DNA from: Escherichia coli
GTDB taxonomy: Bacteria; Pseudomonadota; Gammaproteobacteria; Enterobacterales; Enterobacteriaceae
Reading direction: 5' to 3' (one strand)
Assembly: GCF_024700885.2 (NCBI RefSeq)
Contig: NZ_CP117016.1
DNA: 64,000 bases
Part shown: positions 35,631-45,993 of the stretch, in pieces
Numbering within the stretch: position 1 is the first letter of the stretch
Layout of the letters: each line of letters starts with the position of its first letter
Notes under the pieces: generated by a model
What the model was told of the DNA's origin: nothing
Seen by the model: only the letters and a program-made list of their open reading frames with translations
Databases searched by the model: none
Program-made: the position numbers and the translations under genes

Positions 35631-36533
35631 TTAGTGGCTTTGCGCGATAAGATCGTCTGGTGAAAGTCGGGTCACCATCATAACTAACTCTCTGTCTAAA
35701 CCTCTCTCCAGCATCTCCTGAGCAATACGCAGGGCTTCTTCGCGTTTGCCCAGAATTAATCCATCATTCCGGCCTTCTTCACGTAATCTGTCAGCAATAG
35801 TCATCAGTTTCTCCTTTTCTTGTGGTGCGCGTTCCGCTATCTCACCAATAAATGCACGGAAACGCTGGGCATCCCCCGTTTGTAATACGTAATTAAACAG
35901 GGCTTTTAGCTGTCTGTCATTAGTGTTCCCTGTAACTAGCAGCGAAACAATTTGGTCGACTAATCCCAACAGATCGCGCTGACGAATATGTTTCTGAATT
36001 AACTCCAACAGCGCCATTTTGCGATGTTGCATAATCTCGTCATCTGGCACCACGGTAATATCCACCAGCGGAAAAGCCGATGAATAAATTTTGCGGGCAA
36101 TCGCAGGCTCGGCAAATTCATCAAGCCAGCAGAGTGAATATGGATAAGGGCTTCTGCAACCATGATAAAACAGCATCGGGATCACTAATGGAAGCTCTTT
36201 ATAGCCCGCATCAAGATGGTTTTGCATCGCCGCAATGGAATAGCGCATCATGCGAAAAGCCATTAATTCCTCTGGCTTACTTTGGTGCTCTATCACCACA
36301 TAAATATAACCCGCTCCCTCCTGCGTTTTCACAGACCACAAGAGGTCGGAATAATATTGCCGCAGGTCTTCATCAATAAAACTGTTTGGTTCCAGTTTAA
36401 GCGTTGTTAAATCACACAGTTTGCGCAGCGGCGCGGGAAGATGAATATCAATAAAATCCCGCGCGGTGTCTGGATGGCGTAAAAAAGATTTAAATACCGC
36501 GTCATGCGGCGTGGAAGTTGTCGATATTGTCAT
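35631..36533 (-). CDS. rpnB: Recombination-promoting nuclease RpnB (transposase_31 / PD-(D/E)XK family)
   Basis: 300-aa ORF; matches E. coli YfcI/RpnB from memory. Confidence 0.88.
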
Positions 36534-36729
36534 GGCGTTCCGTCACCCCTCAAATTTAAGATAACGCGACAATAACCACGATTAACCCCCAATGCAGCAG
36601 GCAGTTTTTATCTTTGGACAGCGAATTCAGAACTATTTTTAGCGGACTGCAACTTTTACATTTCAGCGGAAGCTGACTCGCAAATTCCCCTTGAAAATAC
36701 TCCGGCAGCGTTAGCCACCGGAGGGGGAA

Positions 36730-37503
36730 TTATTTCAGCGATCCCTTAAGGAACTGTTGCAGACGAGGACTTTGCGGGTTACCGAATAACTGTTCTGGCG
36801 CGCCCTCTTCTTCTATTTTCCCCTGATGGAGGAAAATGACGTGAGTAGAAACATGGCGAGCAAAGCCCATTTCGTGAGTCACTACCACCATGGTTTTCCC
36901 CTCTTCTGCCAGTTGCTGCATAATGCGCAGCACTTCGCCTACCAGTTCAGGATCGAGCGCCGAGGTAGGTTCATCAAACAGTAAAACTTCCGGTTCCATC
37001 GCCAGCGCCCTTGCGATGGAAACACGCTGTTGCTGACCGCCGGAAAGATGCACCGGATATTTCCCCTGCGCACGTTCGTCTATCCCGACTTTCGCCAGAT
37101 ACTTCACCGCCCGCTCGCGCGCTTCCTGCTTGCTCAGGCCCAACACCTGAATCGGCGCTTCCATGACATTTTCCAGCACCGTCATATGGCTCCAGAGATT
37201 GAAGTGCTGGAATACCATCGTCAGGCGTGTGCGCAGTAAGCGCAGCTGATTTTTATCGGCGACTTTGAGTTGACCATCTTTGTCGCGCACCAGATTGATC
37301 GTCTGGCCATTGACCACGATCGATCCTTCGCTCGGTTTTTCGAGGAAGTTAATGCAGCGCAGAAAGGTACTTTTCCCCGATCCCGACGATCCGATGATGC
37401 TTATGACATCTCCGGCATTCGCTTGCAGTGAGACCCCTTTCAGCACTTCGTGTTCGCCATAGCGTTTGTGCAAATCGATAACGTTTAATTTATTCTCGGA
37501 CAT
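36730..37503 (-). CDS. hisP: Histidine/lysine/arginine/ornithine ABC transporter, ATP-binding subunit
   Basis: 257-aa ORF; Walker [13 protein letters not shown] signature LSGGQQQR. Confidence 0.96.
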
Positions 37504-37510
37504 CGTATTC

Positions 37511-38227
37511 TCAGTGCGTTGAAGAAGGTTTCACATGCTGCAACCAGCGTTTTTCCGCTCTGCGAAAGAGGCTGATCAGGACATAAGAGATGATTAAATA
37601 GAGCACCGCGGCAATGCCGAAGGCGGTAAAAGGTTGATACGTGGCGGCGTTAATATCGCGGGCTATTTTCAGCAGATCCGGCACTGTAGCGGTGAAAGCC
37701 AGCGCAGTAGAGTGCAGCATCAGGATCACTTCGTTGCTGTAGGCCGGTAACGCAATACGCAGCGCCGATGGCAAAATAATGCAGCGATACATTTTAAAGG
37801 TCGAGAAGCCATAGGCTCTGGCGGCTTCAATTTCCCCATGCGGCACTGAACGGATTGCCCCGGCAAAAATCTCGGTAGTGTAAGCGCAGGTGTTGAGCGT
37901 CAGCGCCAGCACGGTACAGTTCAGGCCACTGCGAAAAAAGGCGTTAAGGAACTCGGTTCCCTTAACAATTTCCAGCGTGTACATGCCGGAATAGAACACC
38001 AGCAACTGAACATACAGCGGCGTACCGCGAAAAATATAGGTAAATAACCAGATTGGAAACTGGATGTATTTATTACTTGAGACGCGACCAATCGCCAGAA
38101 ACAGCGCCAGGACTCCGCCTATCACTACCGACAAAATCAGCAGCCACAGGGTGATCGCCACGCCAGTAAAGCGATAACCGTCAGTCCACAGCAGCGGTTT
38201 CCAGTATTCATGTAAGATTTCGATCAC
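37511..38227 (-). CDS. hisM: Histidine ABC transporter permease
   Basis: 238-aa membrane ORF. Confidence 0.95.
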
Positions 38228-38910
38228 AGGTCAGCCCTCTTCACACCCACGGAGTAGCGGCGCTCAAGGAACAGCAGCACACCATTGGAAACGGTGGTGA
38301 AAACCAGGTAAATCACGCCACAAACGATGGCGAAATAGAACGGTTCCCAGGTACTTTTGCCTGCCAGCTGCGTGGCTTTGACCACATCTTCCAGGCCAAG
38401 TAACGAAACCAGTGCGGTAGATTTAAGGATCACCTGCCAGTTGTTGCCAATGCCTGGCAGGGCGTAACGCATCATCGCCGGAAACATGATCCGCCGAAAC
38501 ACTTGCCCACGAGTAAAACCGAACGCCGTCGCCGCTTCTATATGTCCTTTCGGCACAGCCATAAACGCGCCACGGAACGTTTCGGTAAAGTAAGCACCGT
38601 AGATAAAACCAAGAGTGATAATACCTGCGACCATCGGATCAATATCAATCTGCCCGACGCCCATCGCCTCCGTCACCGTGTTTAGTGCAATCTGCAAACC
38701 GTAGAAAATCAGCAGCATCAACACCAAGTCCGGCACGCCACGAATCAGCGTGGTGTAGCCTTCGAAAATAAGGCCCGAAAGCCGATTTTGCGAGAGCTTA
38801 CCGCCAGCGCCAATTAAACCGATGATTACGGCGAGCACTACAGAGCTGATAGCCAGCTCCAGCGTGACGAGCGCACCCTGTAAAATAACACCTGAAAACC
38901 CATACAACAT
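38224..38910 (-). CDS. hisQ: Histidine ABC transporter permease
   Basis: 228-aa membrane ORF; 4-bp overlap with hisM. Confidence 0.95.
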   Translation of the reverse strand: MLYGFSGVILQGALVTLELAISSVVLAVIIGLIGAGGKLSQNRLSGLIFEGYTTLIRGVPDLVLMLLIFYGLQIALNTVTEAMGVGQIDIDPMVAGIITLGFIYGAYFTETFRGAFMAVPKGHIEAATAFGFTRGQVFRRIMFPAMMRYALPGIGNNWQVILKSTALVSLLGLEDVVKATQLAGKSTWEPFYFAIVCGVIYLVFTTVSNGVLLFLERRYSVGVKRADL

Positions 38911-38951
38911 GCAGCCTGTCCTGTCGTGTGTGGTGAATTACCGCCTCTTGT

Positions 38952-38975
38952 CTCCCTCCGGTTACCCGAAGGGAG
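38952..38975 (-). promoter_or_regulatory. Intercistronic stem-loop between hisJ and hisQ
   Basis: ctccctccgg-ttac-ccgaagggag, 10-bp stem with one G-U-type mismatch. Confidence 0.45.
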
Positions 38976-38999
38976 CGGGCTTTCTTTCACCGATGGCGA

Positions 39000-39782
39000 T
39001 TAACCACCATAAACATCAAAATCGAAGTACTTTTTCGCTAATTTCTCGTAAGTACCGTCAGCGCGCATTTCGGCAAAGGCTTTGTTCAGTGCCTCGCGCA
39101 GTTCGTTATCTTCTTTACGCAGGCCCATGCCGGTCCCTACGCCAAACAGTTTTTCATCTTTAACAGACGGGCCACCGAATTTGTAATCTTTACCGACTGG
39201 CTGCTTGAGGAAACCTTCGCTGGCAGCGACCTCATCCTGGAACGCGGCATCAATACGTCCGGCAGTCAGGTCAGAATAAATGTTGTCCTGCCCCTGATAC
39301 GAGACGATTTCAATGCCTTTTGGTGCCCAGTGTTCATTACCGAACGTCTCCTGGGTGGTGCCCTGCAATACGCCTACCCGCTTGCCTTTCAGCGACTCGA
39401 CTGTCGGCTGAATGTCGGAATTTTTCGCCACCACCAGACGAGAATCGGCAGCGTACAGTTTGTCGGTGAAGGCTATTTCTTGCTGACGTTTTTCCGTAAT
39501 GGAAAGCGATGACATGATGGCGTCAATCTTCTTCGCTTTTAAGGACGGGATTAACGCATCCAGTGGGTTTTCGACAAACGTACATTGCGTATTGATGCGT
39601 TTGCACAACTCCTTTGCCAGATCGATATCGAAGCCAACCAGTTCACCTTGTGAATTTTTTGATTCAAATGGCGCATAGGTCGGATCGGTACCGATGCGGA
39701 TGTTTTGCGGAATCGCAGCAAACGCCGCAGTTGCGCTGGAGAAGGCCAGAACCAGAGAGAGCGATAGCACCAGTTTTTTCAT
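39000..39782 (-). CDS. hisJ: Histidine-binding periplasmic protein
   Basis: 260-aa ORF with signal peptide; matches HisJ. Confidence 0.96.
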
Positions 39783-40002
39783 AATGTCCTCAACTGACAG
39801 TCTTTTTATAGGGAATATTTACAGGTTTGTTACACTTATCGTGCCATAAAATTGACCATCAAGGCAAAATATCCCGCCCCGTTAGACGTATTATTTTTCA
39901 TTAAAAATGCTTAAGTATGCATTTCAATGCACCACGATAGTGCAACAAACCTGGCGTGCACCATGATGATCATTCCATCAGGTACAGCTTCCCTGCGACG
40001 TA

Positions 40003-40785
40003 TCAGTCACCGTAGACATTAAAGTCAAAATACTTTTTCGCCATCTTGTCGTAGGTGCCGTCCTGACGCAGCTCGCCAAGCGCCTTATTGAAGGCAGCCG
40101 TCAGTTCCGCATCATCTTTACGTAGCCCTACACCGGTGCCGTCACCGAAGTATTTTTTGTCTTTCACTGATGAGCCAGCAAAGGCGAAATCTTTACCAGC
40201 AGGTTGCTTGAGGAATCCTTCGCTGGCAGCAACTTCATCTTGTAACGCAGCATCCAGACGTCCTGCAGCCAGATCGGAATAGACCAAATCCTGGTTGGCA
40301 TAGGCCACCACATCCACGCCTTTGCTACGCCAGGTCTCGTTAGCGTAAGCTTCCTGGGTTGATCCCTGCAGCACACCCACATGTTTACCTTTCAGTGAAT
40401 CCAGCGTTGGCTGAATCGGCGAACCTTTGGCGGCAATCAAACGAGAATCTGCGGCGTACAACTTGTCGGAGAAAGCAATCTCCTGCTGACGTTTATCGGT
40501 AATGGAGAGCGACGAAATAATGGCGTCGATTTTTTTCGCTTTCAGTGAGGGGATCAGCGCGTCAAAGTCACTGGCAACCCAGGTACATTTCACCTGCATC
40601 CGTTTGCACATCTCGTTACCGAGATCGATATCAAAGCCAACAAAGTCACCTTTGGCATCTTTCGATGAGAACGGCGCATAGGTGGTATCGGTTCCGATAC
40701 GTACCGTCTCCGGTAGCGCCGCATAGCTGGAAGCCGCTGCAGAGAGACCGACTAACAAAGACAGAGCGAGAATCGACTTCTTCAT
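40003..40785 (-). CDS. argT: Lysine/arginine/ornithine-binding periplasmic protein
   Basis: 260-aa ORF with signal peptide; paralog of hisJ; matches ArgT. Confidence 0.96.
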
Positions 40786-40853
40786 ACATAACCCTCAAGT
40801 GAAAATGGCTTTTTTATGTTGTGTATTGTGTTGTGTGTTTGCAGGCTCTTTCA

Positions 40854-40869
40854 TGCAGGTCTTATGCCA
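40854..40869 (-). promoter_or_regulatory. Sigma54 (-24/-12) promoter for argT
   Basis: Minus-strand sequence TGGCATAAGACCTGCA versus consensus TGGCAC-N5-TTGCA; about 70 bp upstream of the argT ATG. Confidence 0.55.
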
Positions 40870-41050
40870 TCTTTACGACAACAGTAACATTCAACGTTAA
40901 ATATGTTAATAAGACGTTGCATTATTGTCCTAAAGTTGAAGATAGCAGGTATGGCGGTTGAATCGCAGCGTTTCGATTCATCGAAAGGAACAAAATGTCG
41001 AGGATTTGATCGCGGTTGCAAAATTGCCCTGAAACAGGGCAACAATGAGG

Positions 41051-41620
41051 TTATGCGCCCTGCCAGCGGGCAAAGAGATCTTCAGGAAGCGTTATGGCGA
41101 ATTGATCGAGTACACGGTTAACCGTCTGATTTATCACATCATCAAGGGATTGCGGGCGATGATAAAACGCCGGAACGGGAGGCATAATCACCGCACCGAT
41201 TTCTGCCGCCTGGGTCATTAAACGCAGATGGCCTAAGTGCAATGGTGTTTCACGCACGCAGAGCACCAGCGGGCGACGCTCTTTCAGCACAACATCTGCC
41301 GCACGGGTCAGTAAGCCATCAGTATAGCTATGGACAATGCCGGACAGGGTTTTGATTGAACAGGGTAAAATCACCATCCCCAGTGTCTGGAAAGAACCGG
41401 AAGAAATGCTGGCAGCAATATCGCGCGCATCGTGCGTCACATCGGCTAATGCCTGCACTTCGCGCAGGGAAAAATCCGTTTCGAGGGATAAGGTCTGGCG
41501 CGCGGCCTGGCTCATCACCAGATGCGTTTCAACATCTGCGACATCGCGCAGAACCTGTAATAAGCGCACGCCATAAATCGCGCCGCTGGCACCGCTGATG
41601 CCTACAATGAGTCGTTTCAT
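41051..41620 (-). CDS. ubiX: Flavin prenyltransferase UbiX
   Basis: 189-aa ORF; matches UbiX. Confidence 0.95.
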   Translation of the reverse strand: MKRLIVGISGASGAIYGVRLLQVLRDVADVETHLVMSQAARQTLSLETDFSLREVQALADVTHDARDIAASISSGSFQTLGMVILPCSIKTLSGIVHSYTDGLLTRAADVVLKERRPLVLCVRETPLHLGHLRLMTQAAEIGAVIMPPVPAFYHRPQSLDDVINQTVNRVLDQFAITLPEDLFARWQGA

Positions 41621-41714
41621 AAATAGTTGCCCTGTCAGACTTGCAGGCAGACTTTGCAGGATTTCGGCGGGAGTTGCAAGTCAGGGTGCCAGACCGGCAC
41701 CCTGAGCGAAGGCA

Positions 41715-43232
41715 TCATCCTTCGTTATGCATTTCGAGATTTTCCACTTCGTTCTGACGTTGCACTGCTTTGGCGTCGTCATTACGTAAAGTATCGAGGA
41801 AATCGAGGTAGCCCTGATCAACATCTTTGGTGACGTAAACGCCGTTGAACACCGAACACTCAAACTGCTGAATATCCGGGTTTTCAGCGCGAACGGCTTC
41901 GATCAGATCGTTCAGATCCTGGAAAATCAACCCGTCAGCACCGATGATCTGGCGAATTTCATCTACTTCGCGACCGTGAGCGATCAGTTCCGTGGCGCTC
42001 GGCATATCAATACCATAAACGTTCGGGAAGCGAATTTCCGGTGCCGCAGAAGCGAGATACACTTTCTTCGCTCCGGCTTCGCGTGCCATCTCGATAATCT
42101 GCTCAGAAGTGGTGCCACGGACGATGGAGTCGTCGACCAGCAGGACGTTTTTATCGCGGAACTCGGCGCGGTTGGCGTTCAGTTTACGGCGCACGGACTT
42201 ACGACGCAGCTGCTGGCCCGGCATGATAAAGGTGCGGCCAACATAGCGGTTTTTAACGAAGCCCTGGCGGTACGGCTTGCCCAGAATACGAGCAATTTCC
42301 AGCGCGATATCACACGAGGTTTCCGGGATCGGGATCACCACGTCGATATCCAGATCTTCCCATTCGCGGGCAATTTTCTCGCCCAGTTTCGTACCCATAT
42401 TCACACGCGCGCTGTAAACGGAAATTTTGTCGATGAACGAGTCCGGGCGAGCAAAGTATACATACTCAAACAGGCACGGATTGCTGACCGGATTGTCAGC
42501 ACATTGACGGGTAAACAACTGCCCTTCTTCAGTGATGTAAATCGCTTCGCCCGGCGCGACGTCACGCAGGAAATCAAAGCCCAGCGTATCGAGCGCTACG
42601 CTTTCGGAAGCGACCATATATTCTGTACGGTTCTCGTCAATATCACGTTTTCCCAGTACCAGCGGACGAATCCCGTTTGGATCGCGGAAAGCAACCATAC
42701 CATGGCCGATAATCATCGCCACGCAGGCATACGCGCCGCGGATTAAGCGGTTTGTGGCAGCAATGGCAGCGAAAATATTGTCGGCTTCCAGCGGGTAGTG
42801 GCGGAAGTTGTCCAACTCGCTGGCGAAGATATTAAGCAGAATTTCCGAGTCGGAAGTGGTGTTGATGTGGCGGCGTTTTTCTTCAAACAGTTTTTTACGT
42901 AACTCATGCGCGTTGGTCAGATTGCCGTTGTGGGCAAGCGTAATGCCATACGGAGAGTTAACGTAAAACGGCTGCGCTTCAGAGGCGCTGGAGCTGCCAG
43001 CCGTAGGGTAACGCACATGACCAATGCCCATATTGCCCTGCAAACGCTGCATATGGCGAGCTTCAAATACATCGCTCACCAGCCCGTTCGCTTTACGCAA
43101 ACGGAAGCAGTTATTGGCATCTATGGTGATGATGCCGGCGGCATCCTGACCGCGATGCTGAAGCACCGTTAAGGCATCATAAATCGACTGGTTAACCGGC
43201 ATAACACCGGCGATACCGACAATACCGCACAT
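41715..43232 (-). CDS. purF: Amidophosphoribosyltransferase
   Basis: 505-aa ORF with N-terminal MCGIVG Ntn-amidotransferase motif. Confidence 0.96.
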
Positions 43233-45924: not shown

Positions 45925-45993
45925 GGTATCCGCTGATTCGTTACGGTGAGAATAGCAAAAGGGCAGAGCCAGTGGCCCTGCCCTTATCAGTTA

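Follow-up and report, generated by a model that had tools for sequence, protein, structure and literature searches.

A stable hairpin in the hisJ–hisQ spacer of Escherichia coli as a probable 3′ protective stem-loop of the argT-hisJQMP mRNA

The window (the whole stretch of 64,000 nucleotides of E. coli DNA analysed in this work) is of chromosomal origin. Searched against 5,426 complete E. coli genomes, a 601-nt query around the hairpin between hisJ and hisQ found a match in 5,425, where hisJ and hisQ are annotated at the matching site, and the identity reaches 100% in strains such as 1190 and PCN033. According to the list of open reading frames, with which the RefSeq annotation concurs, the argT-hisJQMP operon is located on the minus strand and consists of argT (40003–40785), hisJ (39000..39782), hisQ (38224..38910), hisM (37511–38227) and hisP (36730–37503), while purF (41715–43232) and ubiX (41051–41620) are found on the same strand at higher coordinates. 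The gene hisJ codes for the periplasmic histidine-binding protein and hisQ for a permease, and published decay data characterize the former as the stabilised upstream cistron and the latter as the less stable downstream one. The gene arrangement is the same in K-12 MG1655, where no repeat feature is annotated in the hisJ–hisQ spacer.

The spacer between argT and hisJ (39830-39960, minus) contains the sequence TGGCACGATAAGTGT, which resembles a sigma-54 promoter, and, upstream of it, TGCAC…GTGCA repeats resembling NtrC sites. The hisJQMP genes are under nitrogen control, and both kinds of motif fit this.

The hisJ–hisQ spacer occupies 89 nt (38911–38999) between the hisJ stop codon (39002–39000, minus) and the hisQ AUG (38910–38908, minus) and reads UCGCCAUCGGUGAAAGAAAGCCCG-CUCCCUUCGG-GUAA-CCGGAGGGAG-ACAAGAGGCGGUAAUUCACCACACACGACAGGACAGGCUGC on the transcribed strand. 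The K-12 spacer (MG1655/BW25113) differs from it by 1 nt (T→A) located two bases before the hisQ AUG and outside the hairpin. Two mechanically called open reading frames overlapping the spacer (38838–38990, minus, and 38822–39163, plus) are unsupported and were disregarded.

The core hairpin (38952..38975, minus) is formed by the 5′ arm CUCCCUUCGG (38975–38966), the GNRA-type loop GUAA (38965–38962) and the 3′ arm CCGGAGGGAG (38961–38952), which together make up a 10-bp stem with a 4-nt loop, the same fold as given in Table S6 of Dar & Sorek. The ten pairs include a U·G wobble (38969·38958), which turns into a C/A mismatch when the plus strand is folded instead; a stem of 10 bp therefore exists only in the transcribed RNA. 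The hairpin has a ΔG of −18.6 kcal/mol and a z-score of −4.23, with none of 200 dinucleotide shuffles being as stable, and its pairs have a probability above 0.99 within a 200-nt context; for the whole 89-nt spacer the corresponding values are −34.7 kcal/mol and −4.15. An earlier note on this DNA had placed a 10-bp stem and a 4-nt loop at exactly these positions, between the binding-protein gene and the permease genes, and had proposed RNA folding as a check; the folding returned the stable structure, and the open reading frames and the RefSeq annotation agree with the placement. Since its coordinates were confirmed and its stability is beyond chance expectation, the hairpin is real.

In the minimum free energy structure of the spacer, the stem is extended by two further helices involving the 5′ flank GGUGAAAGAAAGCCCG (38976..38991, minus). 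The inner one pairs GCC (38980–38978) with GGC (38945–38943), and the outer one pairs GGUGAA (38991–38986) with UUCACC (38937–38932), the latter having a probability of only about 0.15 in the 200-nt context. The tail directly 3′ of the stem is ACAAGAGGCG, the first part of which, ACAAGA (38946..38951, minus), is single-stranded, and the 8-nt stretch ACAAGAGG contains no U.

A survey of hairpins with an energy of −18 kcal/mol or lower on both strands of the 64-kb window gave 23 hits at about a dozen distinct sites, compared with 0–2 in mononucleotide shuffles. Of the perfect hairpins in the window, the three with the highest stability are located at 1021-1056, 63542-63570 and 45959-45985 (minus), with 16, 13 and 12 bp and energies from −26 to −22 kcal/mol, the last of them being followed by a U-rich tail. 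Another perfect palindromic hairpin, UCAGGGUGCC…GGCACCCUGA, with about −19.5 kcal/mol on both strands and no U tract, lies in the purF–ubiX spacer (41681-41705) and may be another intercistronic protective stem-loop.

As to known element classes, an Rfam covariance scan of 36500–41200 with an E-value threshold of 10 returned a single match, weak and irrelevant, at 39918–39936. REP sequences are imperfect palindromes of 30–40 nt with a conserved GTAG at the foot, present in hundreds of copies per genome (PMC3333891). In the hisJ–hisQ spacer, there is neither GTAG nor CTAC anywhere in 38911–38999, and the hairpin is a 24-nt element fully paired in RNA, unlike the imperfect palindromes of the y, z1 and z2 types. 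The 24-mer matches the window at only one place when up to 3 mismatches are allowed, and blastn with a word size of 11 and E ≤ 10 locates it at a single site in each of 5,425 E. coli genomes, out of 5,426 complete ones, and never on plasmids. A REP/BIME assignment was rejected on these grounds (no GTAG/CTAC, a 24-nt fully paired stem, a single copy per genome), which bears out the earlier description of the structure as a simple hairpin rather than a canonical REP. A canonical z1-type REP, GGATGCGACGCTGGCGCGTCTTATCCGACCTAC followed by a second foot CCGGCCTAC, is present at 53327-53361 (plus) and serves as a positive contrast, as the hairpin bears no resemblance either to it or to the REPs of Salmonella and Citrobacter.

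Regarding intrinsic terminators, the GC-rich hairpin is present while the U-rich tract directly 3′ of it is absent, and a terminator consensus scan of the minus strand did not call the hisJ–hisQ hairpin, so this assignment was rejected as well. The same scan did call a hairpin with a U tract after hisP (36723–36700). This structure (36700-36723, minus) consists of a 10-bp hairpin followed by UAUUUU directly after the hisP stop codon, its U tract contrasting with the hisJ–hisQ hairpin, and is likely to be the intrinsic terminator of the operon. No promoter for hisQ was found within the spacer by a consensus scan.

For comparison across the Enterobacteriaceae, 80 loci were collected via HisQ and their hisJ–hisQ spacers, ranging from 57 to 289 nt, were extracted. 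A strong hairpin is found at the same position in almost every spacer of the 80 loci and in all spacers of up to 100 nt. The latter contain a single dominant GC-rich hairpin starting about 23 nt past the hisJ stop codon, with energies of about −12 to −28 kcal/mol and a median of −18 kcal/mol among the 60 scored, of which 59 were extracted correctly and one (L060) had its hairpin seen from the fold. The tails in the relatives are A-rich and never U-rich (0–3 U in 8 nt, mostly 0).

Although the position is kept, at least nine unrelated stem sequences occupy it across genera. They include CUCCCUUCGG/CCGGAGGGAG in Escherichia, CUCCCUCCUGC/GCGGGAGGGAG in some Citrobacter, CCCCUCCC/GGGAGGGG in Enterobacter, Lelliottia, Leclercia and Kosakonia, CCAUCGCGCGC/GCGCGCGAUGG in Klebsiella and Raoultella, and CCCAUCG…/…CGAUGGG in Kluyvera, with further distinct stem types in Pseudocitrobacter, Pluralibacter, Atlantibacter and Superficieibacter. 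The loop varies even within Escherichia alone (GUAA, GCUA or a 6-nt loop), which makes the hairpin a generic stable stem rather than a specific loop motif.

Covariation was assessed in a MAFFT alignment of 40 sequences restricted to alignable stem types. In this alignment, 90.6% of cells are paired, versus at most 64% when the partners are slid by 1–3 columns, and six pairs have changes in both partners. With 0.292, the covariation score exceeds that of the slid controls (at most 0.170), and none of 500 column shuffles reaches it. Two pairs of the inner 3-bp helix change in a compensatory way between genera (UA 27/CG 9 and GC 29/CG 10), with U-A/G-C in the Enterobacter type replaced by C-G/C-G in the Escherichia/Citrobacter type. 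The 5′ arm of Escherichia is one column out of register relative to the Enterobacter type and was not refitted to the structure in order to avoid circularity, so the main-stem pair counts for the Escherichia and Citrobacter rows are underestimates. In many spacers of the Enterobacter type the whole-spacer z-score is weak, since their runs of C and of G let even shuffled versions fold well, and such scores were kept out of the main evidence. Taken across the Enterobacteriaceae, the compared spacers indicate that selection is on the structure rather than on the sequence.

The AAGA motif 3′ of the hairpin (38946-38949, minus) is invariant in the 40 aligned spacers from many genera and is also kept after the REP pair in Salmonella and Citrobacter, and its last A is the published RNA 3′ end. 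Its conservation might reflect the footprint of a stalled exonuclease, an RNase E site or an A-R-N motif for Hfq.

Within E. coli, 4,513 of the 5,425 genomes are identical over 57 nt and 912 are at 95–99% identity. Both sampled genomes of the latter kind that deviate by a single base (L082 and L084) carry GCCCG→GUCCG at 38979 (minus), which lies outside the hairpin and preserves the helix pairing as a U·G wobble. In a single genome out of 5,426, that of E. coli TUM14697 (NZ_CP128888.1; L083:905-2565), the IS4-like element ISEc13 is inserted inside the hairpin loop with a target duplication of approximately TCGGGTAACC, parting the arms by about 1.5 kb and thus representing a natural hairpin knockout.

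Longer spacers, of 181–190 nt, are found in Salmonella (L017, L020) and most Citrobacter, where about 115 nt are occupied by two inverted REPs (…GGCCTAC…GTAGGCC…). The flanks of this REP pair, …AAAGCCC and AAAGAGGC…CACCACACAC…, are those bracketing the E. coli hairpin, and the resulting layout is …GATAAAGCCC-insert-AAAAGAGGCTTCTTACTTCACCACACACGACAGGACAGGC. The earlier note had held that Salmonella carries a REP at the equivalent position and had suggested an alignment of the two spacers as a check; with the REP pair falling between the same conserved flanks, this equivalence is correct at nucleotide resolution. The Salmonella typhimurium REP pair is reportedly the subject of classical work by Higgins (1982) and by Stern, Prossnitz and Ames (1988). 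A different architecture was observed in Citrobacter freundii M-21 (L056:1212-1500) as well as in L046 and L049 (Atlantibacter), which possess another hairpin, GCGCCCCGG…CCGGGGCGU, and another hisQ leader, …CACAGGATAAGCACC, the spacer of the former containing an additional highly structured insert of about 200 nt.

Simple C-rich/G-rich hairpins occur in Escherichia, in some Citrobacter and in the Enterobacter group, which suggests that the REP pair came later and took the place of an ancestral simple hairpin. Salmonella and Citrobacter may have exchanged this private hairpin for two mobile REPs at the very same place with no loss of function. If this is true, the replacement would offer a clear example from nature of a selfish repeat adopting an existing regulatory role.

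The presence of REP pairs at the identical site in these genera and of an IS element in the hairpin loop of one E. coli strain would also be expected if the hairpin itself were a degenerate or novel mobile palindrome, a REP-like or MITE-like remnant with no selected function. We find this hardly credible, as the hairpin occurs in a single copy per genome, has no GTAG/CTAC and is unlike the z1 REP of the window, the compensatory changes across genera keep its structure, and a functional 3′ end has been mapped to it.

The 3′ part of the spacer contains a CA-rich element, CACCACACACGACA (38922..38935, minus), which lies outside the hairpin as an adjacent module and is a predicted pairing site for the G/U-rich R1 seed of the sRNA GcvB, and next to it the hisQ ribosome-binding region AGGACAGG with the AUG (38908..38922, minus), conserved in Escherichia, Salmonella and Citrobacter. 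The duplex was predicted with the R1 segment alone of the MG1655 gcvB sequence, the full-length GcvB giving a meaningless whole-molecule duplex, and involves 38942–38911 with an energy of −23.5 kcal/mol, its core CACCACACACGACA being located just upstream of the Shine-Dalgarno sequence AGGACAGG. The Hfq-dependent GcvB was shown in reporter assays to repress an intra-operonic hisJ–hisQ fusion via its R1 seed (Miyakoshi 2021; PMC9299463), and hisQ is a verified E. coli GcvB target (PMC9299463). The spacer is therefore bipartite, with the putative protective hairpin for hisJ in the 5′ half and the GcvB target together with the hisQ ribosome-binding site in the 3′ half, and the mapped 3′ end at 38946 falls between the two.

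As an alternative, the hairpin could be the core of a larger spacer structure with the main role of keeping hisQ translation low, the helices at its base masking the GcvB site or the ribosome-binding site, or the structure insulating hisQ against re-initiation by ribosomes. The stem is indeed extended by GCC/GGC and GGUGAA/UUCACC, the latter overlapping the start of the CA-rich site, the inner helix covaries, the GGUG…CACC ends in Salmonella and Citrobacter close a long stem around the REP pair, and GcvB regulates hisQ via the spacer. However, the Shine-Dalgarno sequence and the AUG are outside the hairpin, the outer helix is rarely formed in the 200-nt context with the CA-rich and Shine-Dalgarno regions only partly paired, and the spacers of Klebsiella and Kluyvera (64–66 nt) possess the hairpin but not the outer helix. 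Such control would, moreover, leave the mapped 3′ end unexplained, and we regard it as very unlikely to be the main role of the hairpin.

A hairpin directly followed by a validated GcvB site suggests that sRNA control could be coupled to selective mRNA protection. The hairpin and the GcvB site would then act as one unit, in which GcvB with Hfq, bound at 38942–38911, recruits RNase E, the mRNA is cut 3′ of the hairpin and hisJ is preserved. We consider this coupling doubtful; if it exists, the sRNA would shut off the shared permease hisQMP while sparing the message for the binding protein.

The 3′ ends and the decay of E. coli transcripts were determined by Dar & Sorek (2018) with Term-seq and RNA decay measurements (PLoS Genet 14:e1007354; PMC5927463), and their Table S6 lists a hisJ|hisQ 3′ end at position 2419431 of BW25113 with the upstream sequence GGCTAATCGCCATCGGTGAAAGAAAGCCCGCTCCCTTCGGGTAACCGGAGGGAGACAAGA, a 10-bp/4-nt fold of −19.9 kcal/mol and the gene pair entered as upstream stabilised. 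The 60-nt sequence given there ends with …GGAGGGAGACAAGA (…CTCCCTTCGGGTAACCGGAGGGAGACAAGA), which places the 3′ end at 38946 of the window, the last base of ACAAGA and 6 nt past the stem. Their Table S3 enters hisJ|hisQ among the pairs with differential decay and gives a half-life ratio of 3.72, a single estimate with no standard deviation, and a steady-state mRNA ratio of 5.83 ± 2.81, and it also gives the half-life ratio from Moffitt 2016, which is only 1.39 (PMC5927463). The pair is differentially expressed in Salmonella SL1344 too, with a hisJ/hisQ ratio of 4.77, and the 3′ end there lies at the foot of the REP structure (Table S5; PMC5927463). Following the malE–malF model, the authors read such hairpins as barriers that stop 3′→5′ exonucleases once an endonuclease has cut the mRNA, and state for the class as a whole, rather than for hisJ–hisQ individually, that U tracts are absent and that bicyclomycin revealed no detectable Rho-dependent termination (PMC5927463). 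The pair hisJ–hisQ is absent from Table S4, which lists pairs conserved in E. aerogenes (PMC5927463). As for other sources, no mutational test of the hairpin was found in the literature, no hisJ entry was found in the available, possibly incomplete, supplement text of Adams 2021 on 3′ ends, and hisJ is not mentioned in the RepRanger paper.

The stabilisation of hisJ mRNA and the differential expression that the earlier note mentions for the equivalent position in Salmonella are thus supported for this sequence by the published 3′ end, the half-life ratio of 3.72 and the steady-state ratio of 5.83, with a causal role of the hairpin proposed by analogy. At the same time, a single half-life estimate and the value of 1.39 from Moffitt mean that differential decay may account for no more than a part of the approximately 6-fold difference in mRNA.

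The same numbers leave some room for a partial transcription stop, with the hairpin acting as an attenuator alone or together with Rho or NusA/NusG and the mRNA step being set in synthesis. As the steady-state ratio exceeds both half-life ratios, something beyond decay may contribute; transcriptional attenuation has been reported for REP/BIME structures in similar positions (Espeli 2001; PMC3333891), and a terminator would likewise give a 3′ end just past a GC-rich hairpin. Nevertheless, the tail ACAAGAGG lacks U and is A-rich in all relatives, the terminator scan passes over the site while calling the hisP-distal hairpin, and no detectable Rho-dependent termination was seen at such sites as a class (PMC5927463). 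Besides, transcription of hisQMP must cross the hairpin, since there is no promoter-like site in the spacer. Attenuation is, on balance, improbable, although less so than translational control of hisQ.

We hold it probable that the hairpin works as a 3′ protective stem-loop in the polycistronic argT-hisJQMP mRNA, blocking the progress of 3′→5′ exonucleases. The locus has the traits of malE–malF-type elements, namely a stable hairpin with no U tract where a stable upstream cistron meets an unstable downstream one, and a structure conserved rather than a sequence (at least nine stems and six double-changed pairs).

According to this protective reading, RNA polymerase would transcribe through the hairpin, which is expected as there is no U tract, and the full-length mRNA would then be cut downstream by an endonuclease, presumably RNase E, which could plausibly act at the single-stranded GGUAAUU (38942–38936) directly 3′ of the hairpin. 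Degrading the RNA back from the cut, PNPase and RNase II would stall a few nt past the very stable stem, so that a hisJ mRNA with its 3′ end near 38946 persists and can be translated, whereas the hisQMP portion is lost to decay. The outcome would be more hisJ mRNA than permease and ATPase mRNA and hence an excess of the binding protein, with the GcvB/Hfq target and the hisQ ribosome-binding site, as a separate module, lowering hisQMP expression further. By analogy with malE–malF, both the hairpin and the 3′→5′ exonucleases would be required for the stabilisation. The structure, its conservation and the missing U tract are shown, as are, by published data, the in-vivo 3′ end and the differences in half-life and abundance; we infer the identity of the initiating endonuclease and the position of its cut, the stalling exonucleases and the causal need for the hairpin.

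The hisJ–hisQ hairpin, its 3′ end and its role are already known, as all three are present in the literature (Dar & Sorek 2018, Tables S3, S5 and S6). The mechanism is of a textbook type, providing unequal subunit levels from one operon with more periplasmic binding protein than membrane permease. What is added here is the genus-by-genus turnover of the stem, the nucleotide-level match with the Salmonella REP slot, the invariant AAGA and the adjacency of the GcvB site.

Compared with known systems, the closest is the hisJ|hisQ entry of Dar & Sorek, which concerns the same element with an identical hairpin sequence, the same fold and the same proposed role, but is a table row only, with no mutagenesis, cross-genus comparison or link to the GcvB site. 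Intrinsic terminators likewise combine a GC-rich stem and short loop with an RNA 3′ end a few nt downstream, whereas their defining U tract is missing in hisJ–hisQ, where the downstream genes need read-through. The Salmonella typhimurium REP pair has the orthologous position and the same flanks and leads to the same result, the mRNA ratio being 4.77 and the 3′ end lying at the structure's foot, but it is an insert of about 115 nt with two inverted REPs (GTAGGCC/GGCCTAC feet) which has no sequence homology with the 24-nt hairpin of E. coli. SroC in gltI–gltJ and other GcvB-linked spacers are likewise located between binding-protein and permease genes and belong to the GcvB network; SroC, however, is a stable sRNA sponge released from the gltI–gltJ spacer, while hisJ–hisQ has a GcvB target site following the hairpin, with no sign found of an sRNA being released from the spacer. 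Finally, the malE–malF REP stem-loops (Newbury et al. 1987, as described in PMC5927463) also belong to an ABC-transporter operon with the binding-protein gene first, and there the structure in the spacer stops 3′→5′ exonucleases after an endonucleolytic cut, leaving the binding-protein mRNA in excess; the difference is that malE–malF relies on REP repeats, whereas hisJ–hisQ of E. coli has a unique, non-repetitive 24-nt hairpin.
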